A DNA stretch of 64,000 bases, taken from the NCBI GenBank assembly GCA_017853275.1, contig JAFMJV010000003.1, forward strand, positions 64,649 to 128,648, in the 5' to 3' direction. Below are positions 1 to 39,446 of this stretch, piece by piece. Each line of letters starts with the position of its first letter. The stretch's first letter is position 1. Source of the stretch: Chloroflexota bacterium. Its GTDB lineage: Bacteria; Chloroflexota; Limnocylindria; Limnocylindrales; CSP1-4. The translations under genes and the position numbers were made by a program. Under the pieces are notes generated by a model that did not search any database, was not told where the DNA came from, and saw nothing but the letters and a program-made list of their open reading frames with translations.

Positions 1-110
1 CCACGGCCACCCCGGCCCGGGGGCCGCAGGACGCGCCTTCGCTATCCTGCGTTCATCCTCGGGCGGCGCCGGCGCGCCGCCCTGTCCCCTTCCAGAGCGA
101 GGTGAGATGA
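1..110 (+). CDS. 3' end of an unidentified upstream ORF (partial)
   Basis: Frame is open from the window edge to TGA at 108-110, which overlaps the ATG at 107 of the next gene (ATGA coupling). The roughly 35 visible residues carry no recognisable motif. Confidence 0.2.
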   Translation, partial: TATPARGPQDAPSLSCVHPRAAPARRPVPFQSEVR

Positions 111-1153
111 CGGCGGACGAGCCGGGCACGCGGGTGCCGGGATCGGGATCGCGCGCGCCCGGTGGGAGCGGCGTCGCCTACTCGCCGCTCGCCCGTCCCA
201 CGGCCCGCCGCGGGGCGCGGGTCGTGGAGCGGATCGCCGTCCTCGTCTTCCGGAGCGCCTCGGCCATGGCGGCACGGATCCCCGCCCGCGCCGCGGACCT
301 CCTCGTCCGGGTCGCCTTCCGGATCGGCTACCACGCGTGGCCGCCGAAGCGCCGGATCATCCACCGCAACGCCTCCCGGATCCTCCGCCTCCCGGAGGAC
401 GATCCCGCCGTGGGCCGGCTCGCCCGGGACATCTACACCGGCTACGGGCGCTTCACCCTGGAGCTCCTCCGCCTTCCCCATGCGCCGGAGGACGAGCCGC
501 TCCGGCTCCTGCCGGGAGACGGGCCGGCACACACCGCCTTCCTTGCCGCGTGGGACCGGGCGAGCGCCCGGGGGACCGGGGTCATCGCGGTGAGCGGTCA
601 TATCGGGAGCATCGATCTCTTCGCCGGTTCGTATGCGCTCCGCGGCTACCCCACCTACGGGCTCGCGGACGACACCGCCTTCCCGGAGCTCTTCGACCTC
701 CTCAACCGCCAGCGGCGGCGCTGGGGCCTGGAGATCATCCCGTGGCGGAACCTGCGCGAGATCTTCCGCGTGATGCGGGCGCCCGCGATCCTCGGCATGG
801 TCGTGGACTGGGGCTACCGCCCGGATGACCTTCCGGTCCGGCTCTTCGGCTCGTGGACGACCCTCCCGGCCGGCCCGGCCACCCTTGCCGCCCGGAGCGG
901 CGCGGTCATCCTCCCGGTCGCCTCGATCCGCCAGGCGGATGGGACCTACCGCTCCGTCGCCGCGGAGGCGATCGAGGTCCCGGACGGGTCGCCGGCCGCG
1001 ATCCTCGCCGCGACCCAGCGGATCGCGGATGCCCTGGAGGCGCTCGTCCGGCCCGACCCACGCCAGTGGTTCGCCTTCAAGCCGCTCTGGCCGGCCACGG
1101 ATGCGGAGGGGCGGGCGCTCGAGGCGCGCGCCCGGGAGATCGCCGCGGGATGA
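107..1153 (+). CDS. Lysophospholipid / PIM acyltransferase (LpxL-HtrB-PatA family)
   Basis: 348-aa ORF with an HIGSID (HX4D) acyltransferase motif and family-like C-terminus (PDPRQWFAFKPLW). Stop overlaps the next start (ATGA at 1150). Confidence 0.75.
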   Translation: MTADEPGTRVPGSGSRAPGGSGVAYSPLARPTARRGARVVERIAVLVFRSASAMAARIPARAADLLVRVAFRIGYHAWPPKRRIIHRNASRILRLPEDDPAVGRLARDIYTGYGRFTLELLRLPHAPEDEPLRLLPGDGPAHTAFLAAWDRASARGTGVIAVSGHIGSIDLFAGSYALRGYPTYGLADDTAFPELFDLLNRQRRRWGLEIIPWRNLREIFRVMRAPAILGMVVDWGYRPDDLPVRLFGSWTTLPAGPATLAARSGAVILPVASIRQADGTYRSVAAEAIEVPDGSPAAILAATQRIADALEALVRPDPRQWFAFKPLWPATDAEGRALEARAREIAAG

Positions 1154-2142
1154 GCGAGAGCACCACCGCGCCGTCCCCGGAGCCCGGGTCCGCTCCCCCC
1201 ACGCGCGGCCAGCGGATCTCCGGCGCGCTCCTCATCGCCGCGCTCGGGATCGTCCGGCGCCTCCCCGAGCAGCTCGTCCTGCGGGCGGCCTGGAACGCGG
1301 GCCTCCATCTCCTGCCGCGGCTCCTGCCGGCCCGGCGCGCGGTCGTCCGGGCGAACCTCGGCCGGGTCGTGCGCTGGATGGCCGCCGAGGGCGTGGGAAG
1401 CGAGCGGGGGCGGGCCGCGGCCACGGACGCGCGGCTCCATGAGCGGCTCGTCCGGGAGGTCTTCGGCCACTGGGCGCTCACCTATGCCGAGAGCGCCCTG
1501 GCGACGCGCTATGACGCGGCGGTCCTCCGGGAACGCGTCCGCCTGCCGGACCCGGAGGCGGTCCGCGAGGGGCTCTCCGCGGTCCCCGACGGCGAGCCCG
1601 GCCGGATCTACATCTCGATCCACTTCGGGGCGGTGGAGATCGCCGGGGTCTTCGCGGCCCGGACCGGGGCGATCCCCCTTGCGGCGCCGATGGAGGTCGT
1701 GGCGAACCCGGTGATGGAGCGCTATATCCAGGCGGTCCGGGGCGAGTTCGGGGTGGAGGTCCTTCCTCTTCTCGGCGTGAGCGGGATCCTCAAGGAGCGG
1801 ATCCGGTCCGGCGGCGCGGTGGGGATCGTGGCCGATCGTCCGATCGGCGGCCCGGCCGCCACTCTCTCGCTCTTCGGGGCGCCGGCGCGGATCCCGGCGG
1901 GCCCGGCGATCCTCGCCGTGGAGACGCGCGCCCGGGTCGCCTTCATCAGCCTCGCCCGGGATGCGGGGCTGGGACGCTGGATCGGGCGGATGGATGCGGC
2001 GCTCCCGGCGGCCGACCTCCCGCGCGCCCGGCAGGTCCAGGCCCTCATCGGCGACCATGTGCGCTGGATGGAGCGGACGATCGCGTCCGCGCCGGAGCAG
2101 TGGTGGACGCTGCTCTTCCCGATCTGGGAGGAGGCTGCATGA
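1150..2142 (+). CDS. Second LpxL-HtrB-PatA family acyltransferase (tandem paralog)
   Basis: ATG at 1150 (MSESTT...) lies in frame inside track ORF 853-2142. HFGAVE (HX4E) motif and C-terminal APEQWWTLLFPIW parallel the preceding gene. Stop overlaps the next start at 2139. Confidence 0.7.
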   Translation: MSESTTAPSPEPGSAPPTRGQRISGALLIAALGIVRRLPEQLVLRAAWNAGLHLLPRLLPARRAVVRANLGRVVRWMAAEGVGSERGRAAATDARLHERLVREVFGHWALTYAESALATRYDAAVLRERVRLPDPEAVREGLSAVPDGEPGRIYISIHFGAVEIAGVFAARTGAIPLAAPMEVVANPVMERYIQAVRGEFGVEVLPLLGVSGILKERIRSGGAVGIVADRPIGGPAATLSLFGAPARIPAGPAILAVETRARVAFISLARDAGLGRWIGRMDAALPAADLPRARQVQALIGDHVRWMERTIASAPEQWWTLLFPIWEEAA

Positions 2143-3017
2143 CGACGGACGGGACGGGGGCGGCAGAGACGCCGTCCGCGCACGCCCGGCCGCGGGAGGG
2201 GAAGGCGGACCTCCACGTCCACACGCTCGCCTCGGACGGTGTCTCCGGCGTGGAGGAGATCCTCGCCTTCGTGGAGTCGAGCGACCTGGACGTCGTGGCG
2301 ATCACGGACCACGAGCGGATCGATGCGGGGATCGCGGCGCGCCGGATCGCCCTCGCCCGGGGCCTGCGGACGGAGATCATCGTGGGCGAGGAGATCACGA
2401 CCCGGAACGGCCACCTCATCGCCCTCTTCCTCGAGCGCAAGGTCGCCCCCTGGCGCTCGATGCGCGAGAGCGTCCTGCGCGTCCATGAGCAGGGCGGGAT
2501 CGCGATCGTCGCCCACCCGCTCGTCCCCTACCCCCTGTGCGCCTCCGCAGGCACGATCCGGCGCCTCCTGGACGACCCCGACCCCGCCGCCCATCCGGAT
2601 GCCATCGAGGCCTTCAACCCCACGACCGCGCGGATGCGCTGGAGCCGCCAGGTGCCGGGCTTCGTGGCGGAGGTCGGGCTCGCGGCGGTGGCCGCCTCGG
2701 ATGCCCACCGCGCGGACCTCATCGGGCGGGCGCGGACCCGCTTCCCGGGCCGGAGCGCGGAGGACCTGCGGGCCGCGATCCTCGCGCGGGAGACCGACTG
2801 GGAGGGACGTGGCTACGCCTGGGCCGAGCAGATGGGGATGTTCCGGCGCCAGATGACGAAGAACGTCCGCGCGCTCGGCGAGGAGATCGGCGGGAAGGTG
2901 ATCCGGCGGGACGGGACCGGGCGCGACCTGGGCTACCCGGGCGGGCGGCTCCGGCCGGTCCGCTTCGATCCGCGGGCGGCGGGGATCGAGGATGAGCCGG
3001 CGGCCGGCCCGCGATGA
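2139..3017 (+). CDS. PHP-domain metal-dependent phosphoesterase
   Basis: ADLHVHTLASDG...VVAITDHERID...IVAHP...ASDAHR histidine-rich PHP motifs. ATGA overlaps on both sides tie it to the flanking genes. Confidence 0.8.
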   Translation: MTTDGTGAAETPSAHARPREGKADLHVHTLASDGVSGVEEILAFVESSDLDVVAITDHERIDAGIAARRIALARGLRTEIIVGEEITTRNGHLIALFLERKVAPWRSMRESVLRVHEQGGIAIVAHPLVPYPLCASAGTIRRLLDDPDPAAHPDAIEAFNPTTARMRWSRQVPGFVAEVGLAAVAASDAHRADLIGRARTRFPGRSAEDLRAAILARETDWEGRGYAWAEQMGMFRRQMTKNVRALGEEIGGKVIRRDGTGRDLGYPGGRLRPVRFDPRAAGIEDEPAAGPR

Positions 3018-4231
3018 AGATCGGCCTCGTCACCCCCTACATCTACCCCCGCCCGGGCGGGGTGAACGCGCACGTCCAGGAGCTCTACGAGAACCTCGTC
3101 CTGCGCGGCCACGATGTCCGGATCATCAGCTCCACGCACGGCCCGCAGCGCTCGAGCGAGGGCGACATCATCCGGCTCGGCTACGGGATGAGCGTCCCCA
3201 CGAACGGCTCGGTCGGCACGCTCACCGTCTCCCACCGCTACCCCTCGCTCGTGAAGCGGATGCTCGAGCGCGAGCGCTTCGATCTCATCCACTTCCACGA
3301 GCCCTTCGTCCCCTTCCTCTCGCTCGAGGTGCTGCGGCATTCGAAGAGCGTGAACATCGCCACCTTCCACGCCTACTCCGGCTGGAGCCCCTCCTACGAG
3401 TTCGGCAAGCGGGCGATGGCCCACTACGCCGCGCGCCTCCACGGCCGGATCGCGGTGAGCGCGGCGGCGCGCCACTTCATCAGCCGCTACTTCCCCGCCG
3501 AGTACAAGGTGATCCCCAACGGCGTGGACCTGAACGACTACCGGAACCCCTCGCCCTTCGCGCGCTGGCGGGACGGCGTCCCGAACCTCCTCTTCATCGG
3601 GCGCTTCGAGAACCGGAAGGGGCTCCTCTACCTCCTGCGCGCCTTCCACGAGGTGCGCCGGGCCGGCGAGCCCGCGCGGCTCCTCGTCGTGGGTGGCGGC
3701 CCGCAGGAGCAGGAGGCACGCGACTACATCCGGAAGCACGACCTGCGGGACGTGGAGCTGCTCGGGCGGGTGAGCGACGCGGACAAGGTGCGCGCGCTCG
3801 TCACGTCGGACATCTACGTCTCCCCGGCCACCGGCCAGGAATCGTTCGGGATCGTCCTTCTCGAGGCGATGGCCGCGGGACGGGCGGTCGTCTGCTCGGA
3901 TATCCACGGCTACAAGGGGGTCGTGCGCCGGAACGAGCAGGCGCTCCTCGTCCCCCCCAAGGACGTGGATGCGCTTGCGGGCGCGCTCCTCACCCTCCTG
4001 CGGGATCCCGAGCGGCGGGCACGGATGGGCGAATCGGGCCGCCGGCGGGCGATCCAGTTCGGCTGGGAGAACATCACCGCGAAGGTGGACGACTACTACG
4101 CCTTCGTCATCCGGCGGCTCGCCCAGAGCGGTGAGCTCCCGCGCGGCTTCTCGGCGCCGGTGCCGCCGATGCCCCCCCGTCCCCCGGCTCAGCCCGGCCT
4201 CTGGAACGGCGCCGGAGACGAGGCCGGCTGA
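3014..4231 (+). CDS. pimA: GT4 glycosyltransferase resembling phosphatidylinositol alpha-mannosyltransferase PimA
   Basis: MKIGLVTPYIYPRPGGVNAHV...HFHEP...ATFHAY...ESFGIVLLEAMAAG tracks the mycobacterial PimA N- and C-terminal motifs as I recall them. It sits in an operon with PatA-like acyltransferases. Confidence 0.75.
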   Translation: MKIGLVTPYIYPRPGGVNAHVQELYENLVLRGHDVRIISSTHGPQRSSEGDIIRLGYGMSVPTNGSVGTLTVSHRYPSLVKRMLERERFDLIHFHEPFVPFLSLEVLRHSKSVNIATFHAYSGWSPSYEFGKRAMAHYAARLHGRIAVSAAARHFISRYFPAEYKVIPNGVDLNDYRNPSPFARWRDGVPNLLFIGRFENRKGLLYLLRAFHEVRRAGEPARLLVVGGGPQEQEARDYIRKHDLRDVELLGRVSDADKVRALVTSDIYVSPATGQESFGIVLLEAMAAGRAVVCSDIHGYKGVVRRNEQALLVPPKDVDALAGALLTLLRDPERRARMGESGRRRAIQFGWENITAKVDDYYAFVIRRLAQSGELPRGFSAPVPPMPPRPPAQPGLWNGAGDEAG

Positions 4232-25130: not shown

Positions 25131-25606
25131 GAGCGCACCTGCTCGGCAGCATAGAGATCGAGGAGCTGGAGGCGCGTCGCCGTGAGCCGCCGGGAGACGG
25201 CGAGGAGGACGCGCGGGTAGAGCGCCGCGGCGAGGGCAGGGTCCTCGTGGAGGGCCGCGCGGAGCGCGGTGCCGGGGAAGACGATCGCCTCGAGCGGCTC
25301 GATCGCGACGGCCGTCGAGGTGGCCCGGTAGGGCGGCACGAGCGCGGACCAGCCGTAGATGTCGCCCGGCTCCACGGTGAGGATCGTCGCCTCGCCGCGC
25401 TCGGGGACGAGCGTGCGCAGGGCGACCCGGCCGGTGATCACGACCCCCAGGAGGTCCGTCCCCTCGCCCTCGCGGAGGATGACCGTGCCGGCGGGCGCGG
25501 AGACCGGCCGGGCGAGCGCCGCGAGCCGGGCGGAGACCGCGGGCGCGAGCCCGGTGGCGAACCACGTGGAGGCAAGGGTCGCGACGAGGGTGGCCTGATC
25601 GTTCAT
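25124..25606 (-). CDS. Stand-alone cyclic-nucleotide-binding-domain protein (Crp-like effector domain, no HTH)
   Basis: 160-aa ORF with a cNMP beta-roll pattern (VILREGEGTDLLGVVITGRVAL...EPGDIYGWSALV...RATSTAVAIEP). Its stop (25124-25126) overlaps the beta-gamma start. Confidence 0.7.
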   Translation of the reverse strand: MNDQATLVATLASTWFATGLAPAVSARLAALARPVSAPAGTVILREGEGTDLLGVVITGRVALRTLVPERGEATILTVEPGDIYGWSALVPPYRATSTAVAIEPLEAIVFPGTALRAALHEDPALAAALYPRVLLAVSRRLTATRLQLLDLYAAEQVRSW

Positions 25607-25699
25607 GACCTCAGTCTCGCCTCCGGTGCGGGATGGGGAGAGGGCCGAGCGGCCCGGCGGAGCGTGACGAGCGTCCCACCGGGGCCGGTCCGGCCGGGG

Positions 25700-28600
25700 T
25701 CAGCCTCCGGGGGGGCGGCCGGCGGGCGGGGCCGGGCGGGAGCGGGCTGCGATCACCGTGGCCGCCACCGCGACGAGGATGAGGATGCCCATGACGATCG
25801 TGTCCGCGCGGATCGTGGAGCCCTCGACGCGCGGGTCCATGTTCACCGCGAACTGGAAGTCGTAGTTCCAGGTGGGGAGGAGCATCTGGTAGATGTTCGC
25901 CATCGCCGAGGGGACGGGGAGGCCGGAGAGGTTCGGGATGAAGGCGACGAGGAAGAGGATCGCGGCGAGGAGGATCCCCACCGCGAGCCGGCGCGGATCC
26001 CGGGCACGCAGGACGAGGATGGCCGCGATCCCGAGCGCGATCAGCGCCGGAAGGGCGATGAAGATGTCCGCGACCTCGACCGAGATCGGGTCACCGGAGA
26101 GGAGGAGGCGCGCGGCCACGACGCCGAGGAGCGTGGCGCCCCCGGTGCCGAGGAGCGCGACGCTCCCCCAGCGGCCGTTCCGGCCGGGCGCGCCGGTGCT
26201 TCCGGAGATCTGGACGATCCAGAGCGCGACGGCGATCCCCGCGAGGAGGACGAAGAGGATCCCGATCGCCTGCTGGCTGAGCGTGATCGTGCGGGTGACG
26301 GTCTCCGCGCAGGCGGTCGCTCCCGGGTTCATCTCCGTGACGCCCGCGATCGCGCAGAGCGGCTGGCGGAAGAGCCAGAGGAGCGGGGCGCCCACGAGCG
26401 AGAGGGCGGCGGCGATCCGCGCGATGAGCCAGGCGGCGCGCGAGGGGCCGTGCCACAGCTCCGCCACGAGGTAGCCGAGCCCGAGGACGATGAATGGGAG
26501 GCTCGCATAGACGTGGTACTGGAAGGTGGCCCGGTCGATCCGCGCCCACGGGATCCACATCGACAGGAAGAGGACGATGACGAGCGTGAGCGCGAGGCTC
26601 CGCCGCCGCCACGCCGCCCACGCGGAGAAGATGAGGCCCGCGATCCCCATCCAGAAGACGACGAGGTTCCCGGTGTCGTAGATCGAGCCGGTCCGGCCAC
26701 CTGCGAAGCCCTCCTGGTAGAACCAGACCGGCTTGAGGTCGAGCGGCCAGGCCCACCACGGCGAGGTGGCCGCGTGGGTCGCCCGCAGGCCGTCGTGGTA
26801 GTCGTACATCCCGAGCGTGAGCTGCCAGAGCGTCTGCCCGGTGTTCCCGGCCGGGAAGCCCGGCCAGAGCTGGTTGCCGAGCGCCGCCCAGGGGAGGTAG
26901 GCGGCCACGTAGACGGCGAGCGGGATCAGCGTGAGGCAGGCGAGCGCGAGGAGCCAGGGGATCCCCCCGGCGGCCCCGGGGAGGAGCCACGCGTGGGGTG
27001 GCGGTGCGGAGGGCTCCGGGCCCACGCGGGAGAGGCCGGGCCGGGCGAGCGGTCCGATCCCCGCCGCGCCCGCGAGGCGCCCCGCGACCAGGACGCCGAC
27101 CCCGAGGACGATGAGCCCGATCCCCGCGAGGAGCGCGAGCCGCGGGTCGGGCGGGGCAGGGGCGGCCGGGTCCGACGGGGCAAGGAAGAGGAGACCGCCC
27201 GCGATGAGCGCGAGGACGCCGAGGACGATCGGCACAAAGGTCGCGAAGCGGAGCTCGTCCAGGGTCATCCGGACCGGGCGCCGGACGATCGCCGCGGCGA
27301 GCGCGACGGTGAGCAGGATGATCACGATCGGGAAGAGCCAGTTCCGGCTCGGGTCCGGGACATCCGCCGCCCGGAGCGCCATCGCGCCGAGGACGGCGGA
27401 GAGGACGACCATCCCGGCGAGCGCGAGGAGCCGGCCGAGGGCGGAGCGGAAGAGGACGAGGAGGATGATCCCGCCGATCGCGTAGGCCGCGACCCACTTG
27501 GACGCGAGCGCAAGCCCGAGCAGGAGCCCGACCCCCATGAGCCCGGCGGCGATCTGCCAGGCGCGGGTCCAGCGACCGGTCCAGAGCCCGGCGAAGAGGG
27601 TGAGCGCCGCGACCACGAAGAACGTGATGTAGACGTCGTTCATCGCGATCCGGGCGTTCGCGAAGAGCATCCCCTCCGCGAGGGCGAGGACCGCGACCGC
27701 GACCGCGACGGCGCGGCGGCGGAAGAGGATCCGGGCGAGCAGGTAGAGGAGCGCCGCGGTGAGCGCGCCGAGGATGACGCCGGGGAGGCGCCAGGCGAAG
27801 GCGTTCCCGCCGACCCCCACGGTGGCGCTCGCCCCGTCCGCGGCGACCGCGATGAGCCCCGTCCGGTCCGCCTCCGGCCGGTCGGGCTGGAGGTCGAGCG
27901 TCACCGCGACCGGGGTGAAGGGGAGGCGGGCGTCCGCGAAGAGCGAGCTCCCGTTCGGCTCGATGACCCAGACGGTCGGCTCGCCCGCGGCCGTCCTGCC
28001 CACGACGTGGATGAGGGACGCGGTGTCGTTCCAGAGGACCGGGCCACCGCTCCCCGGAAGCCGGACCGGCTCACGCGGGATGGGGCCCGTCCGGTCGAAG
28101 CGCCACGCGGTCACCTCGCCCTCGCGGGCGACGTAGAGGAGGGGCTCGCCGGTCCCGTAGGGCATGTAGCCGAGACCGAGGACGGGGCTCTCCGTGCCGA
28201 GGGTGCGCAGGATGCGCAGCGAGGAGGGATCCACGATCTCCACGCCCGCGGGGGCCGCGACGGCGACCACGGGGACGGAGGCGAAGCTGACGCCGGTGAG
28301 CCGCCCGTCGTCGATCGGCCCCTGGAGGGTCTCGCGCACGAGATCGTCCGGCCAGGCGGCGAGGACGACCGGTCCGTCCGCCGTGCGGAGCCGCTCCTCG
28401 ATCGCCACGGCATCGATGCCGAGGGCTTCGGCGAGCGGGATCGCCGCGGTCGCGAGGTCGCCGATCAGGGTGGGGTCGGCAACGACCGCCTCGGCGTCCC
28501 CCGCGCGGGAGAGGGCGATGGAGCCGGGGAGGGAGAGCGAGGGACCGACCTGCCGGAGGGTGAGGTCGATCGTGTGCAGCGTCCCGTCCGCGTCGAGGAG

Positions 28601-30934
28601 GACGACCTCGTCCCAGGTCCGCACGAGGTCGATGACCGGGGCGCCGGGCGGGAGGGTCGCGATCTCGTCCGGGAGCGGGGGCCGGTCCGCGTTGCCGAGC
28701 CGGAGCGCATCCATCGCGACGGTGTCGATCGAGCGGAGGGTCCGGTCCTCGCCGGCGATCCAGAGCTGATGCTCGTCCGCGTCCAGCACGAGGGCGGTGG
28801 CGGCAGGACCGATCGGACCGGTGCGCTCGCCGGTGGCGAGATCGATCGCGGTCACTCCGTCCGGGCCGGCGATCCAGAGCCGGTCGCCCATCCGGCGGCC
28901 GGGGTCCCCATCCGGGCTCCAGCGCCGCTCCACGAGGGCGTCCGCCACCGCGCCGTCCGCGACCCGCCCGGTGGCGACCACGCGGTTCCCGCCCGTGAGA
29001 TCGACGCTCGCGGCCATCAGGTACTTCGCGAGGTGCGGGTGCGTGTACTCGTAGATCCCGTGCGGGTATCCGTAGCGCCAGTGCTGGAGGAACTCGAGCG
29101 CGGTCCGCGCGTGGTAGACCTCGTCGAAGTACATCCCGTAGGGGTGCGCGAGGTTGGCACCCCGCAGGACGAGGCCCGCGAGGACGATCGCGAGGAGGGC
29201 GGCGGCATCCTTCCGGGTGAGCGTCCCGCCCCGCTCGCGGGCGAGGCCGGCGCTCCGGTCCGCGCGGGCGCGGGGGGCGGAGAGGTAGCGGCCCACGCGG
29301 GACGCCGCGGTCCGCCAGGCATCCCAGCCGGCGGGCGCGGGCATGGCGGCCTCCATCCCGGCGGATGGCGTAGGCGCCGCGAGCGGCCCGGAGCCGCCCA
29401 CGCGGCGGGGGGCAGAGCCGGGTACGGGGGCTTCCATGGGAGCGCCGGGGATGGGGTCGCCCACCGGACGCGCGAGGTCCGGGATGACGCTCCGGCGGAC
29501 CGCCCCGGCGAGCTCGCCGGCGATCCGCTCGAAGGGGTCCGGTGCGATGCGCCGCCGGAGCTCCCAGCCCGCGAGGACGAGTCCCGTCCCCTGGAGGAGG
29601 ATCGCGACGAGGATCGGGAGCGGTCGGCCGGGCCCGAAGGCCTCGCCGAGCGGGAGGCCCGCGATGTTCTCCGTGGAGTAGCCGGGGACCATGAGGATCC
29701 CGTGGAGGTTGATGAAGGAGCCGGCCGCGACCGCGATCAGGGCGGCCATCCAGCGCGGCGAGGCGACGGCGAGGAGCGGCAGGAAGGCGAAGACCGGGAA
29801 GAGGTAGCGCTCGTGGACGCGCGTGGGGAGGAAGAAGAAGGCGAGCGAGAGCCAGACGGCCGCCAGGAGGATCGTCCAGCGGTCCGCGGCGAGGATGCTG
29901 CGCAGGAAGCCCCACAGGAAGCCGAGCGCAAGGAGGACCGTCCCGATGAGGATCCCGGGGAGCGGGCCGAGGAGCGGGACGTCGTCCGGGGACCAGGCGT
30001 AGGCGAGGGCGAGCGGCGGGCTGCCGCCGGCGCCCAGGAGCGCCCACAGGTTGTAGGCGTTCACCGAGAGATACGGATAGCCACCCGCCGTCTGGGACAT
30101 CAGGCTGAGGTACTGGATCGGCCCGATCCCGAAGGGGAGGGCGATGGCGAGGAAGACGAGGACGAAGGCGAGCCCGGCGGTGACGAGCCGGAGGGGTCCC
30201 TGCTCGGCGGCGAGCCACGGCCGGATGGCCGCCGGCCCCCACGGCCGGTTGCGCGGCGCGGATCCCCGGCGGAGGAGATGGCGCGAGATCAGGACGCCCA
30301 CGACGATCGGCGCGAGGACGATCCCGAACTGGGGCTTCATCAACGCCGCGACGGCGAGGAGCGCGGCGGATCCCTCGCCATTGCCGCGCACGAGGGCCGC
30401 GACGGCGAGGAGCATGACGAGCGCCCCCACCGCGTCCGTCTGCCCCCAGATCGCGGAGTCGTAGATCGTGACCGGGTTGAAGAGCCAGACGGCGGCGGCG
30501 ATGAGCGCCAGCTGCGGCGCGCGCCGGCCCGGCCAGGTCCAGCCGAGGACGAGCCGGTAGAGGAGGAACCCGACGGCCAGGTCCGCGGCGATCGCAGGGA
30601 GCTTGATCAGCTCCCCGGTGGCGTTCCCGCCGTCCCCGCCGAGGAACGAGCCGAGGAGACCGATCGGCCACAGGACGAGGAGATAGCCGGGCGGGTAGTC
30701 GGACCAGACGGATCCGTAGAAGCCGCCCGGTCCCCGCTCCGCCATGACGTTCGCCCAGGCGATATAGCTGTTGAGGTCCGTCGCGAAGCCCGATCCGGGG
30801 AAGAGGACATACGCGAGCGTGAGACGGAGGGCGAGAGCGCCGAGCAGGAGTAGGATGAGGGCGGGCGTCTGGGAGACCGGGGGCAGAGGACGCCCAGCCG
30901 ATCCGACCACCGAGCCGGACGAGGTCGGGAACAC
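25700..30934 (-). CDS. Giant polytopic double GT-C glycosyltransferase with a soluble insertion in the PMT/GT39 module
   Basis: The track ORF reaches 31360 (1886 aa). I prefer GTG 30934, which has GGAGG 11 nt upstream and TATACT about 41 nt upstream. Module 1 is a GT-C-like module (FATDLNSYIAWA...DYPPGY). Module 2 is PMT-like (MYFDEVYHAR...YEYTHPHLAKY...NAFAWRLPG...SPWWAWPL...FQYHVY). Confidence 0.75.
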   Translation of the reverse strand: MFPTSSGSVVGSAGRPLPPVSQTPALILLLLGALALRLTLAYVLFPGSGFATDLNSYIAWANVMAERGPGGFYGSVWSDYPPGYLLVLWPIGLLGSFLGGDGGNATGELIKLPAIAADLAVGFLLYRLVLGWTWPGRRAPQLALIAAAVWLFNPVTIYDSAIWGQTDAVGALVMLLAVAALVRGNGEGSAALLAVAALMKPQFGIVLAPIVVGVLISRHLLRRGSAPRNRPWGPAAIRPWLAAEQGPLRLVTAGLAFVLVFLAIALPFGIGPIQYLSLMSQTAGGYPYLSVNAYNLWALLGAGGSPPLALAYAWSPDDVPLLGPLPGILIGTVLLALGFLWGFLRSILAADRWTILLAAVWLSLAFFFLPTRVHERYLFPVFAFLPLLAVASPRWMAALIAVAAGSFINLHGILMVPGYSTENIAGLPLGEAFGPGRPLPILVAILLQGTGLVLAGWELRRRIAPDPFERIAGELAGAVRRSVIPDLARPVGDPIPGAPMEAPVPGSAPRRVGGSGPLAAPTPSAGMEAAMPAPAGWDAWRTAASRVGRYLSAPRARADRSAGLARERGGTLTRKDAAALLAIVLAGLVLRGANLAHPYGMYFDEVYHARTALEFLQHWRYGYPHGIYEYTHPHLAKYLMAASVDLTGGNRVVATGRVADGAVADALVERRWSPDGDPGRRMGDRLWIAGPDGVTAIDLATGERTGPIGPAATALVLDADEHQLWIAGEDRTLRSIDTVAMDALRLGNADRPPLPDEIATLPPGAPVIDLVRTWDEVVLLDADGTLHTIDLTLRQVGPSLSLPGSIALSRAGDAEAVVADPTLIGDLATAAIPLAEALGIDAVAIEERLRTADGPVVLAAWPDDLVRETLQGPIDDGRLTGVSFASVPVVAVAAPAGVEIVDPSSLRILRTLGTESPVLGLGYMPYGTGEPLLYVAREGEVTAWRFDRTGPIPREPVRLPGSGGPVLWNDTASLIHVVGRTAAGEPTVWVIEPNGSSLFADARLPFTPVAVTLDLQPDRPEADRTGLIAVAADGASATVGVGGNAFAWRLPGVILGALTAALLYLLARILFRRRAVAVAVAVLALAEGMLFANARIAMNDVYITFFVVAALTLFAGLWTGRWTRAWQIAAGLMGVGLLLGLALASKWVAAYAIGGIILLVLFRSALGRLLALAGMVVLSAVLGAMALRAADVPDPSRNWLFPIVIILLTVALAAAIVRRPVRMTLDELRFATFVPIVLGVLALIAGGLLFLAPSDPAAPAPPDPRLALLAGIGLIVLGVGVLVAGRLAGAAGIGPLARPGLSRVGPEPSAPPPHAWLLPGAAGGIPWLLALACLTLIPLAVYVAAYLPWAALGNQLWPGFPAGNTGQTLWQLTLGMYDYHDGLRATHAATSPWWAWPLDLKPVWFYQEGFAGGRTGSIYDTGNLVVFWMGIAGLIFSAWAAWRRRSLALTLVIVLFLSMWIPWARIDRATFQYHVYASLPFIVLGLGYLVAELWHGPSRAAWLIARIAAALSLVGAPLLWLFRQPLCAIAGVTEMNPGATACAETVTRTITLSQQAIGILFVLLAGIAVALWIVQISGSTGAPGRNGRWGSVALLGTGGATLLGVVAARLLLSGDPISVEVADIFIALPALIALGIAAILVLRARDPRRLAVGILLAAILFLVAFIPNLSGLPVPSAMANIYQMLLPTWNYDFQFAVNMDPRVEGSTIRADTIVMGILILVAVAATVIAARSRPAPPAGRPPGG

Positions 30935-30965
30935 GCGCTGACCGGCCTCCAGGAGCGAGCGGAGA

Positions 30966-32786
30966 GTGGACGGGAGTATAGCAACGGGCCCCCTGCCGCC
31001 ATTCCCCCCGGATGAAGCGGGTGATGGGCGGTCGCCGACGTCACCCCCGGCTCCGCCCCGGCCCTCGTGGGCACCCCCGGTGCGGCCCGGTCCGGCGACC
31101 CCGTCACCCGTCCCACCGGAGCCTCTCGTCCCCCCGCTCCCGCGCGCCTCGAACGCCGCCGCGGAGCGCTCGCTCGCGGGCTGGGCCGTGGCGGCGATCG
31201 GGGAACCCGCCGCGGAGCCCGGTGAGCCGCCGGCCGGCCGGACCGGCGACCTCCGCTCGCCGGGCGTCCCACCCCCGCCCGGTCCCGGCAGCGACCCCTG
31301 GCAGCTCGCGGCTCCGGCGCCGGGGGAGGCCGGCGGCCCGGCCGTCAGCCCGTGGATCACCGATCCCGGGGAGGTGCCGGCTCCGCCCGTGGCGCTCCCG
31401 GCGCGGCCGGGGAGGAAGCGGCGCGATCGCTCGACGATCCTCGGGCGCTTCCTCGACCGGGTCGACCCGCTGATCGTGGGTGCCCTCCTCTTCCTCGTCG
31501 CTGCGTGGGTCTACCTGGGGAGCAACCCGGGCCGGATCGACTTCTACGACCACTTCACGTGGCAGGCCGAGGCCTGGCTGAGCGGCCACGCGGGGATCCG
31601 CTGGCCCGTCTCGGAGGGGCCCTTCGTGAACGACTACTTCCAGGACGTGCTCCCCCTCGACGACGATCCGGGTCACGCCCTCATCCCCTTCCCGCCGCTC
31701 CCCGCGATCCTCCTTCTCCCCTTCGTGGCGGCCTTCGGGCTGGCGGCGAGCGCCTCCACCCTCGCGGCGGTCCTCGGCGCGCTGAACGTCGTGCTCTGCT
31801 GGCGGATGCTCCTGCGGGTGACGGATCGCCGGGATGCCGCGCTCCTGGGCGCGATCTTCTACGGCTTCGGGACGGTCGCGTGGTACGCGGCGATGCTCGG
31901 GAACACGTGGTTCTACGCTCACGTGGCGGCGTCCACCTTCGTCTTCCTCTCGATCACCGCCGCGCTGGACGCGGACCGGCGGGAGCAGACGGGCCAGGCC
32001 GCGCGGCGGATCGCGGGGATCCTCGTGCCGCGGGCGGTGTGGGCCGGCTTCCTCGCGGGGATCGGGATGCTCGCCCGGCTCCCCACCGGGTTCGGTGCGA
32101 TCTTCCTCGTCTTCGTGGGCGGCGGCGGCCACTGGTTCCGGCGCGGGCTCTCGGCGGCGATCGGGGCGCTGATCCCCGTCCTCCTCCTGCTCGGCTACAA
32201 CCTCACCGTGACCGGGCATCTCTTCCACCCGGCCTACGAGTACCTCTACCGCAACGAGTACCGGCCGGTGGGCGCCTTCTGGAACGATTCGTGGGCGATC
32301 GAGGACCCGCGCTACATCCCCCAGAACGCGATCATCATGCTCGCGTGGCCGCCGGAGCGGCCGATCGAGGAGGACCCCGAGTGCGCCGGCCGGGGGAACC
32401 TCCAGGGCGCGGACCTCCTCTTCGACCGCCAGTGCCCCCTCCTCCGGCCGAGCCCGATCGGGATGAGCATCCTCCTCACGAGCCCCGCCTACCTCCTCAT
32501 GCTCCCCGTCCTGTTGCGCGGGAGGCGGAACCGGCTCGTCCTGGGCGCCGGCCTCGCGGTCCTCCTCATCACGATCGTCAACCTCAGCCACTTCAGCCAG
32601 GGCTGGGTCCAGTTCGGGTACCGCTTCTCCAACGACTTCGCACCGTATGCCGCGATCCTCGTCACGCTGGGGATCGCGAGCGCGCTCCGGAACCGGACAG
32701 GGACCGCGATCGCCGTCCTCCTCGTGGGCGCCTCCGTCCTCGTCAACGCCTGGGGGGTCTGGTGGGGAGTGGCACGGGGATGGTGA
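30966..32786 (+). CDS. GT-C-fold membrane glycosyltransferase (ArnT/PMT_2-like)
   Basis: Polytopic body begins near residue 170 (VDPLIVGALLFLVAAWVYL) and has an acidic first loop (DFYDHF...NDYFQDVLPLDDDP). Start is uncertain: GTG 30966 from the track or GTG 31374. The N-terminus is Pro-rich and low complexity. Confidence 0.6.
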   Translation: MDGSIATGPLPPFPPDEAGDGRSPTSPPAPPRPSWAPPVRPGPATPSPVPPEPLVPPLPRASNAAAERSLAGWAVAAIGEPAAEPGEPPAGRTGDLRSPGVPPPPGPGSDPWQLAAPAPGEAGGPAVSPWITDPGEVPAPPVALPARPGRKRRDRSTILGRFLDRVDPLIVGALLFLVAAWVYLGSNPGRIDFYDHFTWQAEAWLSGHAGIRWPVSEGPFVNDYFQDVLPLDDDPGHALIPFPPLPAILLLPFVAAFGLAASASTLAAVLGALNVVLCWRMLLRVTDRRDAALLGAIFYGFGTVAWYAAMLGNTWFYAHVAASTFVFLSITAALDADRREQTGQAARRIAGILVPRAVWAGFLAGIGMLARLPTGFGAIFLVFVGGGGHWFRRGLSAAIGALIPVLLLLGYNLTVTGHLFHPAYEYLYRNEYRPVGAFWNDSWAIEDPRYIPQNAIIMLAWPPERPIEEDPECAGRGNLQGADLLFDRQCPLLRPSPIGMSILLTSPAYLLMLPVLLRGRRNRLVLGAGLAVLLITIVNLSHFSQGWVQFGYRFSNDFAPYAAILVTLGIASALRNRTGTAIAVLLVGASVLVNAWGVWWGVARGW

Positions 32787-34378
32787 GCGCGGCGCGGCCG
32801 GTGGAGCGACCCCGGCGGGAGCCCTTCCCGGACACGTGGGCTGCGGCCCCGCTCCTCGCAGCGGCGGCCGCCCTCGGGCTCTACCTCCCCACCCTCATGC
32901 CGGGGGTCGGGGTCTGGGACACCGCGGAGTTCCAGGCGCTCGGTCCCACGCTCGGGATCGCCCATCCCACCGGCTACCCGGCCTACACGCTCCTCCTCTG
33001 GCTCGCCTCCGTCGTCCTCCAGCCGTTCGGGGAGCCGGCCTTCCGGGCGAACCTCCTCTCGGCGCTCCTCACCGCCGGGGCGGCCGCCTTCGCCGCGATC
33101 GCCCTCATCCAGCTCACCCGCCGGACGGCGATCGCGCTTGCGGGCGGGATCGCGCTCGCCGTGGCGCCGGTCGCGTGGGCGAACGCGCTGCGCGCGGACC
33201 CCCATCCGTTCCACCTCTTCCTCAGCGCGCTCCTCCTCGTCCTCCTCATCGCCTGGGGCGAGCGGGTCCGCGCCGGCGAGGAGCGGGCGGGCCGCCTTCT
33301 CGTGGCCGCGTCGGCGGTCTGGGCCCTCTCCGTGGGGAACCACGCGCTCAGCCTCCTCCTCGCCCCGGGGATCGCGCTCTACGTCCTCCTCGTCGTGCCG
33401 CCGCGGGCGTGGCTGACGCGCCGGCACTGGGGGCTCGTCCTGGGCTGCATCGTCACGATCGTCGTCATCGTGGTGGCGACCTACGCCTACCTCCCGATCC
33501 GCTCCTCCATGGGACCCCCGCTGGACTACGCCCACCCCGCGGACTGGATCCGCACGGATGCGTGGGGGAACGTGACCGGCGGCTTCCGCTACCTCGTCCT
33601 CGGCGAGCAGTTCCAGGGGACCTTCCGCGAGCTCCCGGAGCTGCGCGAGGCGATCGCCACCGTCTGGGCGCAGCTGGAGGCGAACCTCGGGCCGGCGGCC
33701 TGGCTCGTCCTCCTCGGCATCCCGGCCGGGCTGATCCGGCGGACCCGCGAGACGATCCTCATGCTCGCCTGGTTCGTCATCACCTGGCGCTTCTCGCTCG
33801 GCTATCTGAACGCGGCGATCGAGCGCTACTACCTCGTCCCGATCCTCGTCGCGGTCCTGTGGGCCGGGATGGGGCTCGACCTCGTCTGGAGCGCGCTGGC
33901 CCGGGTGGGCCGGCTCGTCGCGGCACCGGGATCGCGGGCCGCGCAGGCCACCGGGCTCGCGGCTTCGATCCTCATCGGCGGGCTCGCGCTCGGCGTCGTC
34001 CTCCAGCCGGTCCAGGAGCGAGCGCGGATGCTGGACGCCTCCGGCGATACGTGGGCGCAGGCATGGCTGGACGAGGTCCTCGTGGCGCTCCCGCAGGACG
34101 CGGTCATCGTCAGCTGGTGGGGCTGGTCCACGCCGCTCTGGTATGCGATCCACGTGGAAGGCCGGCGGCCGGACCTCCTCGTCATCGACGATCGCAACGT
34201 CCTGGATGACGGCTACGGCGGCGCCGGGGTGGCGATCGATACCTGGCTCGGCCGGCGGCCGGTCTACATCATCCGGCTGGACGGGGATCTCCCCGCCTTC
34301 CAGGAGCGCTGGGGGCTGGAGCCTCTGCCGGGGATCACGACGGGTAGCCCGGTCTACCGGGTCATCCCGCCCTCCTGA
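32780..34378 (+). CDS. DUF2723/TMEM260-like GT-C membrane glycosyltransferase
   Basis: ATG 32780 overlaps the previous stop. The N-terminal loop motif VWDTAEFQALGPTLGIAHPTGYPAY resembles the WDxGEF...HPPG signature of DUF2723 proteins as I recall it. A polytopic N-terminal half is followed by a soluble C-terminal domain. Confidence 0.65.
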   Translation: MVSAARPVERPRREPFPDTWAAAPLLAAAAALGLYLPTLMPGVGVWDTAEFQALGPTLGIAHPTGYPAYTLLLWLASVVLQPFGEPAFRANLLSALLTAGAAAFAAIALIQLTRRTAIALAGGIALAVAPVAWANALRADPHPFHLFLSALLLVLLIAWGERVRAGEERAGRLLVAASAVWALSVGNHALSLLLAPGIALYVLLVVPPRAWLTRRHWGLVLGCIVTIVVIVVATYAYLPIRSSMGPPLDYAHPADWIRTDAWGNVTGGFRYLVLGEQFQGTFRELPELREAIATVWAQLEANLGPAAWLVLLGIPAGLIRRTRETILMLAWFVITWRFSLGYLNAAIERYYLVPILVAVLWAGMGLDLVWSALARVGRLVAAPGSRAAQATGLAASILIGGLALGVVLQPVQERARMLDASGDTWAQAWLDEVLVALPQDAVIVSWWGWSTPLWYAIHVEGRRPDLLVIDDRNVLDDGYGGAGVAIDTWLGRRPVYIIRLDGDLPAFQERWGLEPLPGITTGSPVYRVIPPS

Positions 34379-34409: not shown

Positions 34410-35207
34410 GTGCAAGCCGTAGCCGATCCCGGGGAACGCCGGCGCGTCGCCGCCCTCAGCTACTTCTTCCCCGCGCACAACGAGGAGGAGAACCTCGAGG
34501 CGCTCGTGGACGAGGCCCTCGCGACGCTCCCCCTGCTCGCGGACGAGTTCGAGATCATCGCCGTGAACGACGGCAGCCGCGACCGGACCGGGGAGATCGC
34601 GGACCGGCTCGCCGCCGCGCACCCCGGACGCGTCCGTGCCGTCCACCACGAGGTGAACCGCGGCTATGGCGCCGCGCTCCGGAGCGGCTTCGGGGCGGCG
34701 CGCTACCCGCTCATCTGCTTCACGGACGGGGACCGGCAGTTCCGCGTGGCGGACCTCGGCCGCCTCCTCGACCTGCTCGACCCTGCCGGCGGGGCGCCGG
34801 ACGTGGTGGTGGGCTACCGGATCCAGCGCGCGGACCCCGCGGTCCGGCTCGCCTATGCGCGGGTCTACCGCGCCTGTCTGCGGCTCTTCTTCGGCCTCGG
34901 GGTCCGCGATGTGGACTGCGCCTGCAAGCTCTTCCGGCGCGATGCCCTTGCGGGGATCCGCCTCGAATCGGGCGGCGCCTTCCTCTCCGCGGAGCTGCTC
35001 ATCAAGCTGCGCGCCACGGGCCGCACGATCCGCGAGGTCGGCGTCCCCCATCACCCCCGGGTCGCGGGCCGGCAGTCGGGGGCGAACCCGCGCGTCGTGC
35101 TGCGTGCCGTGCGCGACTTCTGGCGGCTCCGGATCCGGCTCTGGCTGCGCCGGGACGCGGCGCTCCGCCGGGGCGTCCCGGTCCTCGGGGACGAGAGCGG
35201 CCGCTAG
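34410..35207 (+). CDS. GT2 polyprenol-phosphate glycosyltransferase (Ppm1/DPM-synthase-like)
   Basis: FPAHNEEENL...IIAVNDGSRDRT...NRGYGAALRSG...TDGDRQF are GT-A (DXD) motifs of dolichol/polyprenol-phosphate mannose or glucose synthases. GTG start. Confidence 0.8.
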   Translation: MQAVADPGERRRVAALSYFFPAHNEEENLEALVDEALATLPLLADEFEIIAVNDGSRDRTGEIADRLAAAHPGRVRAVHHEVNRGYGAALRSGFGAARYPLICFTDGDRQFRVADLGRLLDLLDPAGGAPDVVVGYRIQRADPAVRLAYARVYRACLRLFFGLGVRDVDCACKLFRRDALAGIRLESGGAFLSAELLIKLRATGRTIREVGVPHHPRVAGRQSGANPRVVLRAVRDFWRLRIRLWLRRDAALRRGVPVLGDESGR

Positions 35208-37977: not shown

Positions 37978-38337
37978 CTACACGGGGCGCCCGGCGTCCC
38001 CGGGGGGGCGGCCCGGCCGGGGAGCGGAGCGGATGACGATGCGCAGCTCGCGCAGGCGGGAACCACCGGGTGCGGCGGCGAAGGCATCGAGGAGGATCCC
38101 CGAGCGGAGGCGGAGCTCCTGGGCGGTGAGCGGATCGGGCGCGCTGACCACGAGGACAGGGGGAGCGACCTCGAGGAGGCGCGAGGTCCCGGTGGCGGGC
38201 GGGACCTGCTCGGCCACGACCCGCTCCCAGCTCGCCATCGCGGTCGCGAGCTTCAGCTCCGGCTCCAGGCCGAGCTCGTTCGCGAGCCCGGGGATGAGGT
38301 CGCCGATCCGGCGCATCGGCCGGCGCGGCCGGGTCAT
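37978..38337 (-). CDS. DUF721 (DciA-like) protein
   Basis: Position immediately after recF (ATGA overlap at 38334-38337) and the pattern IGDLIPGL...W..VVAEQV...TSRLLEV..PVLVVSAPDPLTAQELR are typical of DUF721/DciA. Confidence 0.7.
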   Translation of the reverse strand: MTRPRRPMRRIGDLIPGLANELGLEPELKLATAMASWERVVAEQVPPATGTSRLLEVAPPVLVVSAPDPLTAQELRLRSGILLDAFAAAPGGSRLRELRIVIRSAPRPGRPPGDAGRPV

Positions 38338-39446
38338 CCTGCGCGCTCGAGACGGCCATCCACGACGCGCCACGCCGTGGAGGCGGCGACGAGCGCCGGG
38401 TCGAGGTCGTCCAGGGTCGTCGTCGTGACGAAGGCCTGGGGGAGGGCGCCGATCCGCCGGACGAGGTGGGCCCGCCGGTCCGGGTCGAGCTCGGAGAAGA
38501 CGTCGTCGAGGAGGAGGAGCGGCGGGCGGCCGTCCACCTCGCGGAGGACCTCGAGCTCCGCGAGCTTCAGGGCGAGGATCGCCGTCCGCTGCTGGCCGCG
38601 GGAGGCGAAGCCCGCGAGGTCGCGTCCGTCCAGGCGGAAGACGAGGTCGTCCCGGTGCGGACCGATGAGCGTGGCGCCGTTCCAGAGCTCCTTCTCGGCG
38701 GTCTCCGCGAGCCGGCGGCGCAGGGCGTCCTCCGGCTCCTCCCCGGGTCCGGCCGGCGCGTTCGTGACGAGCTCGAGGGTGAGCCGCCCCTCGCCCGGTG
38801 CGATCTCCGCGTGGGCATCCGCGAGCGGTCCGGCGAGCGCTGCGAGCGTCTCCTGGCGCCAGCGGACGATCCGTCCGCCCTCGGTGACCACGACCCGGTC
38901 CCAGAAAGGGAGCTCGTCGCGCGACGCCTGCTCCTCCCGGATCCGCCGGAGGAGCGTGTTCCGCTGGGTGATCGCCCGGGCGTAGGTGGCGAGGACGGAG
39001 GCGCCCTCCGGCTCCCGTCCGGCCACGAGCGTATCGATCGTCTCCCGGCGCAGGCCCGGCGCGCCGACGACGAGGAGCATCTCCTCCGGTGCGAAGAGGA
39101 CGGTCCGGAAGGCGGAGGGGAGGGCCGTGGTGCGGCGCGGGACGCCGTTGATCCGGACCCGCTTCCGGGCGCCGGGGTCGCCTCCCGGCTTCGCCAGCAC
39201 GACCTCGATCACCGGCCCCGGGTCGAGCGTCGCCTCCACGCGCGCGAGACCCGCGCTCCAGCCCACGAGCTCCGCATCCACCGAGGCGCGGTGGGAACGC
39301 CCACGGGAGCAGACGACGATCGATTCCACGAGGTTCGTCTTGCCCGCCGCGTTCGCACCCACGATCACCTGGGGGCCGGGCGGGAAGTCCACCTCCAGGG
39401 AGGCGTAGCTGCGGTAGCCGGCGAGCGAGAGGTGGCGGACGATCAT
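38334..39446 (-). CDS. recF: DNA replication and repair protein RecF
   Basis: MIVRHLSLAGYRSY...GANAAGKTNLVESI (Walker A), SRGQQRT signature and LLLDDVFSELD (Walker B). Conserved dnaN-recF synteny. Confidence 0.92.
   Translation of the reverse strand: MIVRHLSLAGYRSYASLEVDFPPGPQVIVGANAAGKTNLVESIVVCSRGRSHRASVDAELVGWSAGLARVEATLDPGPVIEVVLAKPGGDPGARKRVRINGVPRRTTALPSAFRTVLFAPEEMLLVVGAPGLRRETIDTLVAGREPEGASVLATYARAITQRNTLLRRIREEQASRDELPFWDRVVVTEGGRIVRWRQETLAALAGPLADAHAEIAPGEGRLTLELVTNAPAGPGEEPEDALRRRLAETAEKELWNGATLIGPHRDDLVFRLDGRDLAGFASRGQQRTAILALKLAELEVLREVDGRPPLLLLDDVFSELDPDRRAHLVRRIGALPQAFVTTTTLDDLDPALVAASTAWRVVDGRLERAG

Follow-up and report, generated by a model that had tools for sequence, protein, structure and literature searches.

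We analyzed a 64,000-nucleotide stretch of contig JAFMJV010000003.1 from a Chloroflexota bacterium, referred to hereafter as the window, and focus here on the giant glycosyltransferase gene that it carries on its minus strand at positions 25700..30934. This gene is a complete coding sequence of 1744 codons plus a stop, with its start at GTG 30934, and its product joins two membrane-embedded modules of the GT-C glycosyltransferase fold on one chain: an N-terminal module resembling ALG6 and PimE (module 1), and a C-terminal module of the protein O-mannosyltransferase (PMT) type (module 2), whose first extracytoplasmic loop (EL1), the loop that holds the catalytic Asp, is interrupted by a predicted β-propeller. 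A divergent operon with further putative glycosyltransferase genes begins next to it, and a block of genes resembling those for phosphatidylinositol mannosides (PIM) lies near the start of the window. Features of the giant gene given below are all on the minus strand, and residues are numbered from GTG 30934.

A Single Gene of 1744 Codons

The window has a G+C content of ~74% and therefore contains long open reading frames (ORFs) on either strand. In the minus frame, the G+C contents of the three codon positions (GC1/2/3) are 0.73/0.53/0.95, with a GC3 of 95.4%, a pattern that is the signature of a genuine high-GC gene. The antisense ORF of 1868 aa at 25247..30853 on the plus strand, with a GC1 of 95.5%, is the mirror artefact of this composition, and not a gene.

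The minus-strand ORF itself runs over 25700..31360, which gives 1886 aa when read from GTG 31360, and an earlier note on this DNA had offered both 1744 and 1886 aa as the length of the protein. The only start codons within the first 260 codons of this ORF are GTG 31360, GTG 30934, GTG 30910 and ATG 30745. The second of these has a GGAGG 11 nt upstream (counted from its end), corresponds to the start used by 115 of the 120 homologues, and was chosen by independent gene callers on two assemblies, and the extension from 30935 to 31360 lacks the GC3 signature and would run into the divergent gene. Because the GGAGG, the starts of the homologues, the GC3 and the gene calls all favor GTG 30934, the 1744-aa form is supported by the sequence, and we set the 1886-aa form aside.

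A chain of this length could also be an artefact, with two or three genes merged through mis-assembly or a miscalled frame, or with the coding sequence on the opposite strand. The 1868-aa antisense ORF would fit such an explanation, as would the 10 of 81 related loci at which the modules lie in differing frames. Against this, the GC3 of 95% is confined to the minus frame, all Pfam matches fall on the minus-strand translation, the independently assembled ENA and Logan data give the identical protein (as does P0001, a protein collection entry identical to the 1744-aa form), both modules lie in a single uninterrupted frame at 71 of the 81 loci, and the protein collection holds more than 120 full-length homologues with 43–66% identity and, for the most part, 95–100% query coverage. 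An artefact thus has practically no standing: the evidence refutes it, and the gene is genuine. The view of the earlier note that one ORF holds two modules therefore withstands the check for an assembly fusion, and both modules are supported as GT-C, by Pfam and, for module 1, also by AlphaFold2 and Foldseek.

The C-Terminal PMT Module

Module 2 (residues 571–1744) is PMT-type (GT39-like) and keeps both the DE and the R-x4-D motifs of this superfamily. In a scan of the whole protein, PF02366 (44.6 bits, gathering threshold 22.7) and PF16192 (36.9 bits, threshold 32.4) both score above their thresholds, as does a further match to PMT_2. The PF02366 match is divided in two, with profile positions 4–62 corresponding to residues ~584–649 (when residues 560–665 are scanned alone) and positions 80–199 to residues 1043–1163, such that ~390 residues occupy the site of 18 profile positions (62–80), and the compact EL1 of this family is not kept. 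When the insert is excised in silico, module 2 gives one contiguous alignment to residues 47–251 of yeast Pmt1 (6p25_A, E 1.7e-6), in which FDEV falls on FDEV (D77-E78), HPHLAKY on HPPLAKM, and ARIAMND on SRYILLD. The transmembrane helix 1 (TM1) and N-terminal half of EL1 (residues 571–647, 28994..29224), which bear the conserved FDEVYHARTAxEFLQ...YEYTHPHLAKY, align in turn with Pmt1 residues 47 to ~115.

The DE motif itself is Asp604-Glu605 (29120..29125) and is invariant, while the R-x4-D motif is R1095-IAMN-D1100 (27635–27652), which is aligned to SRYILLD of Pmt1 and conserved as RIaMND among the 120 homologues. In the PMT of Mycobacterium tuberculosis (MtPMT), the equivalent of Asp604, D74, is essential (PMC12331936); the second essential Asp of that enzyme is D176 in EL2, and its R-x2-Y/F motif in EL5 is R441/Y444 (R649/F652 in ScPmt1). 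A candidate for the latter in the giant protein is R1468-A-T-F1471 (26522–26533), which is conserved and falls inside the PF16192 match, with the caveat that the alignment of the EL5 region to Pmt1 is not significant. The EL4 motif HxATSPWWAWP is likewise conserved in the 120 homologues and, like the other three motifs, would have its counterpart among the essential residues of MtPMT (PMC12331936).

Beyond the insert, the rest of the PMT module (residues 1047–1744, 25703..27796) runs from TM2 onward and contains the remainder of the PF02366 match (profile 80–199), the PF13231 match and the PF16192 match, with PMT_4TMC matched over residues 1368–1527 (26354–26833). The segment that separates the PMT part from the 4TMC part consists of hydrophobic helices and gives no Pfam match to a MIR domain, and the extra helices at the C-terminus bear a conserved DPRR...IPN..LP.P...LLPTW..FQF. 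On the strength of the Pfam thresholds, the DE motif and the EL2 Asp, module 2 can be assigned to the PMT/GT39 superfamily from its sequence; none of the NCBIfam models scanned fits the 1744-aa protein.

Module 2 is joined to module 1 by a cytoplasmic linker (residues 476–570, 29225..29509) that is variable, Pro/Ala-rich and net basic (19 K/R vs 11 D/E over residues 460–576). Its alignment occupancy is 0.53–0.58 and its conservation is low, up to a conserved R-A-D-R-S..L..E.GG at its end, before TM1 of module 2. The basic linker and the acidic insert (56 D/E vs 30 K/R) fit a cytoplasmic location of the former and an extracytoplasmic location of the propeller, and the predicted topology places the catalytic loops of both modules on the outer side of the cytoplasmic membrane.

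A Predicted Propeller in the Catalytic Loop

The insert comprises the 399 residues 648–1046 (27797..28993), between the second EL1 helix and TM2, and splits EL1 ~45 residues after the DE motif, directly before TM2. AlphaFold2, run on a 28-sequence family alignment, models it with a mean predicted local distance difference test (pLDDT) score of 93.8 and a predicted template modeling (pTM) score of 0.91, as ~30 β-strands in four-strand blades, with 7–8 blades in all. Compared with the PDB by Foldseek, this model had 1524 matches with E <= 1e-3. The 50 top-ranking ones are WD40-type or designed propellers, led by seven-bladed WD40 proteins and the designed eight-bladed Tako8 (E ~1e-10 to 1e-11). 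The target-normalized TM-scores are mostly 0.6–0.75 (some down to 0.22), at 9–13% identity. By sequence, the family profile of the insert matches Ika8/Tako8, BamB and YncE in the PDB. Residues 655–1045 have no Pfam match even at E = 10, although PQQ_2 (PF13360, the BamB type) is weakly matched in 11 of 28 homologues, with a best E of 4.6e-6. Both lines of comparison place the insert, as modeled, among 7–8-bladed propellers of the WD40/BamB type.

The modules and the insert bear out the structural claims, motifs and positions of the earlier note, which had described a complete PMT/GT39 module with a DE motif (in agreement with PF02366, PF16192 and the Pmt1 alignment) and a propeller-like insertion sharing the loop of that motif, as the AlphaFold2 model and the alignment with the insert excised also indicate. 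Its bounds of 27806–28993 become 27797–28993 here, and its six or more repeats become 7–8 blades, together with a helical subdomain of ~60 residues that it had not set apart. Nor is the insert an already annotated PMT accessory domain: the candidate of a MIR-like domain of this kind fell with the empty Pfam scan, and the weak PQQ_2 matches are the nearest annotation.

Alignment occupancy of the insert is ~1.0 in the 120 homologues, and its conservation is highest over the last ~100 residues, which abut TM2 beside the catalytic loop. The helical subdomain (residues 820–881, 28292..28477) lies within one blade and consists of three helices and one strand, at insert residues ~173–234 (DSSP helices at 180–191, 195–204 and 217–228). 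In a profile search, it matches residues 30–99 of SpoVD (7rcz), in the pedestal/head of this class B penicillin-binding protein (PBP), with a domain E of 8e-5, and residues 75–149 of a second class B PBP (4ovd). This likeness is not reproduced by a single-sequence search or by Pfam, and we treat it as a lead from sequence profiles.

We note separately that three relatives, P0166, P0159 and P0165 (L083, 9.2–9.5 kb), carry a Ser/Thr/Pro-rich low-complexity stretch of 40–60 residues just before the subdomain, on the extracytoplasmic side and near the active site. Such stretches are typical targets of O-glycosylation, and enzymes of this kind might glycosylate themselves.

What would a propeller do in this position? 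Its closest relatives, as modeled, are protein-interaction scaffolds of the BamB/WD40 kind, and it may be a substrate-recognition domain, as the earlier note proposed. It could instead be a scaffold that tethers the enzyme to cell-wall synthases or the secretion apparatus, or that oligomerizes, leaving the choice of acceptor to the EL1/EL4/EL5 groove alone, an arrangement that would fit either of the acceptors discussed below. BamB-type propellers are assembly scaffolds, and to the PQQ_2/BamB matches of the insert can be added the alignment of the helical subdomain with a PBP pedestal/head and the retention of HxATSPWWAWP in EL4, the region that in MtPMT is proposed to recognize the acceptor peptide (PMC12331936). 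Set against this are the poor reproducibility of the PBP likeness and the position of the best-conserved ~100 residues of the insert, beside the catalytic loop, which fits a role at the active site. We consider a purely scaffolding propeller improbable.

The N-Terminal ALG6/PimE-like Module

Module 1 (residues 1–475, 29510..30934) is a GT-C module of ~12 helices, of the ALG6/PimE type. When residues 1–480 are scanned in isolation, three Pfam families come out near threshold with none clearly best: PIG-U (E 2.7e-6, 27.2 bits against a cutoff of 24.5), GT87 (PF09594, E 8e-6, 26.1 bits against 25) and Alg6_Alg8 (E 2e-5, 24.3 bits against 25). Sequence searches of this module against solved structures gave no useful match, and its placement among them comes from the fold search only. 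The AlphaFold2 model, based on 18 sequences, has a pLDDT of 82 and a pTM of 0.86, and shows ~12 membrane helices together with juxtamembrane helices. Its nearest Foldseek match is yeast ALG6 (6snh, E 1e-6, TM-score 0.60–0.63), then PimE (9dm5, E 1.6e-5), followed by PIG-U, ALG3 and glycosylphosphatidylinositol (GPI) mannosyltransferase I, with OST, ArnT and Emb lower. The model thus has the GT-C fold, with its conserved N-terminal helix core and juxtamembrane helices, in line with the earlier description of a polytopic N-terminal GT-C module with a DYPPGY loop motif.

This motif is found from residue 79, and is preceded by SGFATD from residue 48. In the family alignment, SGFxxD, DYPP, YDSAxWGQxD, KPQ(F/Y)G and LPTRVHERY are invariant. 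Asp53 (30776..30778) belongs to the first of these motifs. It lies in module 1's first extracytoplasmic loop and is a candidate catalytic base, with Tyr57 at +4, a position held by Tyr or Phe across the family. The catalytic base of PimE is D58, which sits at the tip of its first juxtamembrane helix and is stabilized by Y62, and PimE is grouped with ALG6, ArnT and PglB in the GT-C_A subclass (PMC12041525). Asp53 and Tyr57 would match D58 and Y62, a correspondence that we infer from sequence rather than from a structural superposition.

A Class-Wide Family

We scanned species-representative genomes for the EL1 signature (YHART[AG]xEFL, IYE[YF]THPH). The signature occurs in at least 594 genomes, and almost all of the best 80 loci bear the name Chloroflexota, Limnocylindria or CSP1-4 in their titles. 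The full-length relatives in the protein collection are 1650–1900 aa long, and all 120 aligned homologues retain both modules and the insert, which answers in the affirmative whether the same insertion recurs in homologues, as the earlier note had asked. An exhaustive search with the insert profile found 995 representatives at E <= 1e-3, 123 of them at E <= 1e-30, and many of these are fragments. The layout is therefore that of a class-wide, uncharacterized family of Limnocylindria-type Chloroflexota.

Public names for these proteins are generic only, such as "phospholipid carrier-dependent glycosyltransferase" and "Gpi18-like mannosyltransferase". A literature search that did not cover subscription journals turned up neither a GT-C enzyme with a propeller in its catalytic loop nor a fusion of a PMT with an ALG6/PimE-like module, and literature on Chloroflexi O-mannosyltransferases, Limnocylindria glycosyltransferases and Chloroflexi PIM held nothing describing the 1744-aa protein. 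The architecture had been called novel in the earlier note. This holds insofar as no published description was found; the protein is not unique, being found throughout the class and under generic names in databases.

At the 10 loci at which the modules lie in different frames, the cause is split genes or indels. A true split is seen at L083, where a 702-aa module 1 gene overlaps a 1439-aa PMT+propeller gene by 11 nt. Conversely, one relative (P0170, 2012 aa) has gained a third, C-terminal module, and another (P0207, 2390 aa) an extra middle module. Rosetta-stone variants thus exist in both directions, with the modules split at L083 and a homologue of a neighboring gene fused in P0170. We also considered stand-alone PMT+propeller proteins of 1100–1500 aa as a separate architecture, and rejected this, as at least some of them result from a split or truncation of the gene call at the same locus (the 90% clusters of these forms also contain members of 1798 and 2127 aa). 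As an isolated observation, P0160 (981 aa, at L084) has the PMT module and propeller without module 1 or the C-terminal extension, and lies beside genes for a sigma-70 factor and a methyltransferase. The propeller-bearing PMT thus appears to stand alone, outside the cluster, in some genomes.

The Divergent Glycosyltransferase Operon

Only 31 nt (30935–30965) separate the start of the giant gene from that of its divergent neighbor, a gene for a polytopic protein of 606 aa (30966..32786, plus strand). This protein matches the NCBIfam model of the LA_3751/LA_3752 putative glycosyltransferases at E 2e-8, below the cutoff, and shares 30% identity across 457 aa (E 1e-20) with the third module, at the C-terminus, of P0170. 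Through this fusion, it is functionally tied to the giant protein. From these sequence matches, it is probably another GT-C-type transferase. The first ~170 codons of its ORF (30966–31475) are Pro-rich and weakly coding, with a GC3 of 0.86 vs 0.96 in the remainder, and its true start may lie further downstream, leaving a normal intergenic region.

Next on the plus strand are a TMEM260-like GT-C protein of 532 aa (32780..34378; PF11028, E 4e-23) and a GT2 of 265 aa (34410..35207; PF00535) of the polyprenyl-phosphate-sugar synthase type, with NCBIfam matches to ArnC, dolichyl-phosphate hexose transferase and PpgS. The only characterized member of the TMEM260 family is a protein O-mannosyltransferase (PMC10214176). 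Across 82 loci, the 606-aa gene is found at 73, the TMEM260-like gene at 50 and the GT2 gene at 65. The GT2, which is 59–78% identical across its loci and is the best-conserved gene of the cluster, is likely, judging from its sequence, to be the source of the lipid-linked donor.

Genes for DnaN, a RecF-like protein and DciA lie at 37978–40608 on the minus strand, 4–9 kb beyond this glycosylation cluster, which probably places the locus near the origin of chromosome replication.

A PIM-like Block and the Question of the Acceptor

The favored reading of the giant protein, which we hold tentatively and at slightly less than an even chance, is that it glycosylates Ser/Thr residues of proteins, with the propeller as a docking platform. 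The GT2 would make a polyprenyl-phosphate-hexose, probably mannose; after flipping, the PMT module would pass this sugar to Ser/Thr of exported proteins in the initiation step. The propeller, lying over the EL1/EL4/EL5 groove, the proposed site of the acceptor peptide in MtPMT (PMC12331936), would position the acceptor, in the role played by the MIR domain in eukaryotic PMTs, by tetratricopeptide repeats (TPRs) in TMTC and TMEM260 proteins, and by the WW-like hairpin in MtPMT. The ALG6/PimE-like module 1, beside it on the same chain, would then lengthen the glycan from the first sugar, and the two further GT-C-like proteins of the operon would add more sugars or serve other acceptors. We favor a protein acceptor because the PMT and 4TMC signatures and all of the catalytic motifs tested are kept, and because the type of propeller and the TMEM260-like neighbor fit it.

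Several observations weigh against this reading. The match to the NCBIfam Pmt equivalog (NF058602) is remote, at 29.8 bits against a cutoff of 800. No flippase was recognized among the called neighbors, in a survey that included no targeted search for one. The enzymes to which module 1 is structurally closest all have lipid-linked glycans, and not proteins, as their substrates. Finally, the giant gene adjoins a phosphatidylinositol (PI)/PIM-type glycolipid operon at 66 of 84 loci, which points to a glycolipid acceptor.

This last point leads to a different account of the locus, in which the acceptor is a PI-anchored glycolipid or lipoglycan, elaborated at the outer face of the membrane by both modules, the two GT-C neighbors and the GT2. 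Its core would come from the operon with Ino1, the phosphatidylinositol-phosphate (PIP) synthase, the PatA-like acyltransferases and the GT4; the PMT fold would have been co-opted, the propeller would bind or guide the glycan, and the parallel would be with PimE, MptA and MptB in Actinobacteria. In this class, the block is seen at L083, where the giant gene is followed by convergent genes for a GT4, a PHP protein, two PF03279 acyltransferases, Ino1, a CDP-alcohol phosphatidyltransferase and an HTH regulator. Such a set of GT4, PHP, acyltransferase, Ino1 and CDP-alcohol (CDP-OH) transferase genes is what the PI/PIM operon of Actinobacteria contains (compare pgsA1-patA-pimA). Within 10-kb flanks of the 84 loci, we found the GT4 at 66, the acyltransferases at 61, Ino1 at 49 and the CDP-OH transferase at 46, and in most relatives the 3' end of the giant gene lies immediately next to the block.

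The window has this block at 107..4231 on the plus strand, with two PatA-like acyltransferases (PF03279), a PHP protein and a GT4. Their order and orientation match those in the relatives, and the best NCBIfam match of both acyltransferases is the phosphatidylinositol mannoside acyltransferase. We note that Ino1 and the PIP synthase would fall to the left of the window start. To this synteny can be added the folds matched by module 1 (ALG6, PimE, ALG3 and the PIG-M type act on lipid-linked glycans, and PIG-U is a subunit of the GPI transamidase) and the combination of one GT2 with four GT-C modules, which is a pattern of lipoglycan assembly.

In the window, however, the block is ~21.5 kb of unrelated genes away from the giant gene, a separation which shows that the linkage of the two is breakable, and the block is convergent with the giant gene and so not co-transcribed with it. 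Synteny within a single class may also mirror shared ancestry and not function. Moreover, glycan-acting GT-Cs such as Emb have jelly-roll soluble domains and not BamB-like propellers (PMC7305291). We also know of no characterized member of the PMT/PMT_4TMC families with a non-protein acceptor. Taken together, a glycolipid acceptor is the main alternative, somewhat less probable than the protein acceptor, which is kept as the favored reading.

A bolder form of the glycolipid account would be that Limnocylindria have an actinobacterial-style PI-mannoside/lipomannan-like pathway, in which a PMT-fold enzyme, turned to a non-protein acceptor and fitted with a propeller in its catalytic loop, and a PimE/ALG6-like enzyme have been welded into a single-chain lipoglycan synthase. 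We think this unlikely, but, if true, the protein would have two active sites on a single chain and would be the first of the PMT family to act on something other than proteins.

The stretch between the block and the giant gene (~4240–25699) contains genes for an amidohydrolase, an ABC sugar transporter, a GFO_IDH oxidoreductase, an NiFe-hydrogenase set with a HycI-type protease, a ferredoxin/NAD-binding protein and a cNMP-binding protein, and looks like a lineage-specific insertion or rearrangement.

Whichever acceptor is used, the giant protein is a natural system for the coupling of acceptor choice with successive sugar additions at the outer face of the membrane. The family is also a marker of a class that is abundant in soil and freshwater and uncultured, and its conserved supercluster with the PIM-like operon is a concrete lead to the cell-envelope glycoconjugates of the Chloroflexota. 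It bears on whether PI-mannolipids and O-mannosylation, thought to be mainly actinobacterial, are older or more widely spread. It overturns no principle, and offers a defined target for structural and biochemical work.

Comparison with Known Systems

With the three-component GT2/flippase/GT-C systems, the cluster shares an adjacent and conserved GT2 of the ArnC/DPM1/PpgS type. It differs from these in that four GT-C modules share one GT2, and in that no flippase, for which no specific search was made, was recognized in the cluster.

Module 1 resembles PimE (GT87), ALG6, ALG3 and PIG-M-type enzymes in its modeled fold (TM-scores of 0.5–0.66), and shares with PimE an invariant outer-loop Asp with an aromatic residue at +4, as well as conserved Lys and His residues later in the chain. 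As in the PimE and ALG6 types, its donor would be a polyprenyl-phosphate-monosaccharide. Unlike these enzymes, to which its identity is 13–18%, it is near threshold for three Pfam families, and in most genomes it is never free-standing.

Like MtPMT (Rv1002c, GT39) and yeast Pmt1/Pmt2, module 2 has the GT-C fold, the DE motif in EL1, R-x4-D in EL2, the PMT_4TMC region, the HxxxSPWWxWP hairpin region and a candidate R-x2-F/Y in EL5, and its donor would likewise be a polyprenyl-phosphate-sugar. Both the giant protein and the bacterial PMTs are without MIR. Unlike these PMTs, however, it has a 399-residue propeller in EL1, a second GT-C module fused to it, only a weak match to the Pmt equivalog, and extra helices, some separating the PMT from the 4TMC part and others C-terminal, such that module 2 comes to 785 aa without the insert, compared to the ~520 aa of bacterial PMTs.

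The propeller also has parallels in other GT-Cs, as a noncatalytic extracytoplasmic module paired with a membrane core. Eukaryotic PMTs have a MIR β-trefoil in EL4, and TMTC1–4 and TMEM260 have arrays of TPRs. Bacterial PMTs lack MIR; for MtPMT, a WW-like hairpin in EL4 has been proposed to serve in its place (PMC12331936). That a GT-C can carry a soluble domain between its first two helices is known from the Emb arabinosyltransferases (GT53), in which the periplasmic jelly-roll domain PDN lies between TMH1 and TMH2 and the catalytic DDX is in a later loop, PL2 (PMC7305291). Unlike the insert of the giant protein, this PDN leaves the catalytic loop intact, and Emb acts on arabinan. Thus, whereas characterized protein-glycosylating GT-Cs carry their soluble recognition domain in EL4 or at the C-terminus, the giant protein is predicted to carry a domain of a different fold, a propeller, inside EL1, the loop of the catalytic Asp.

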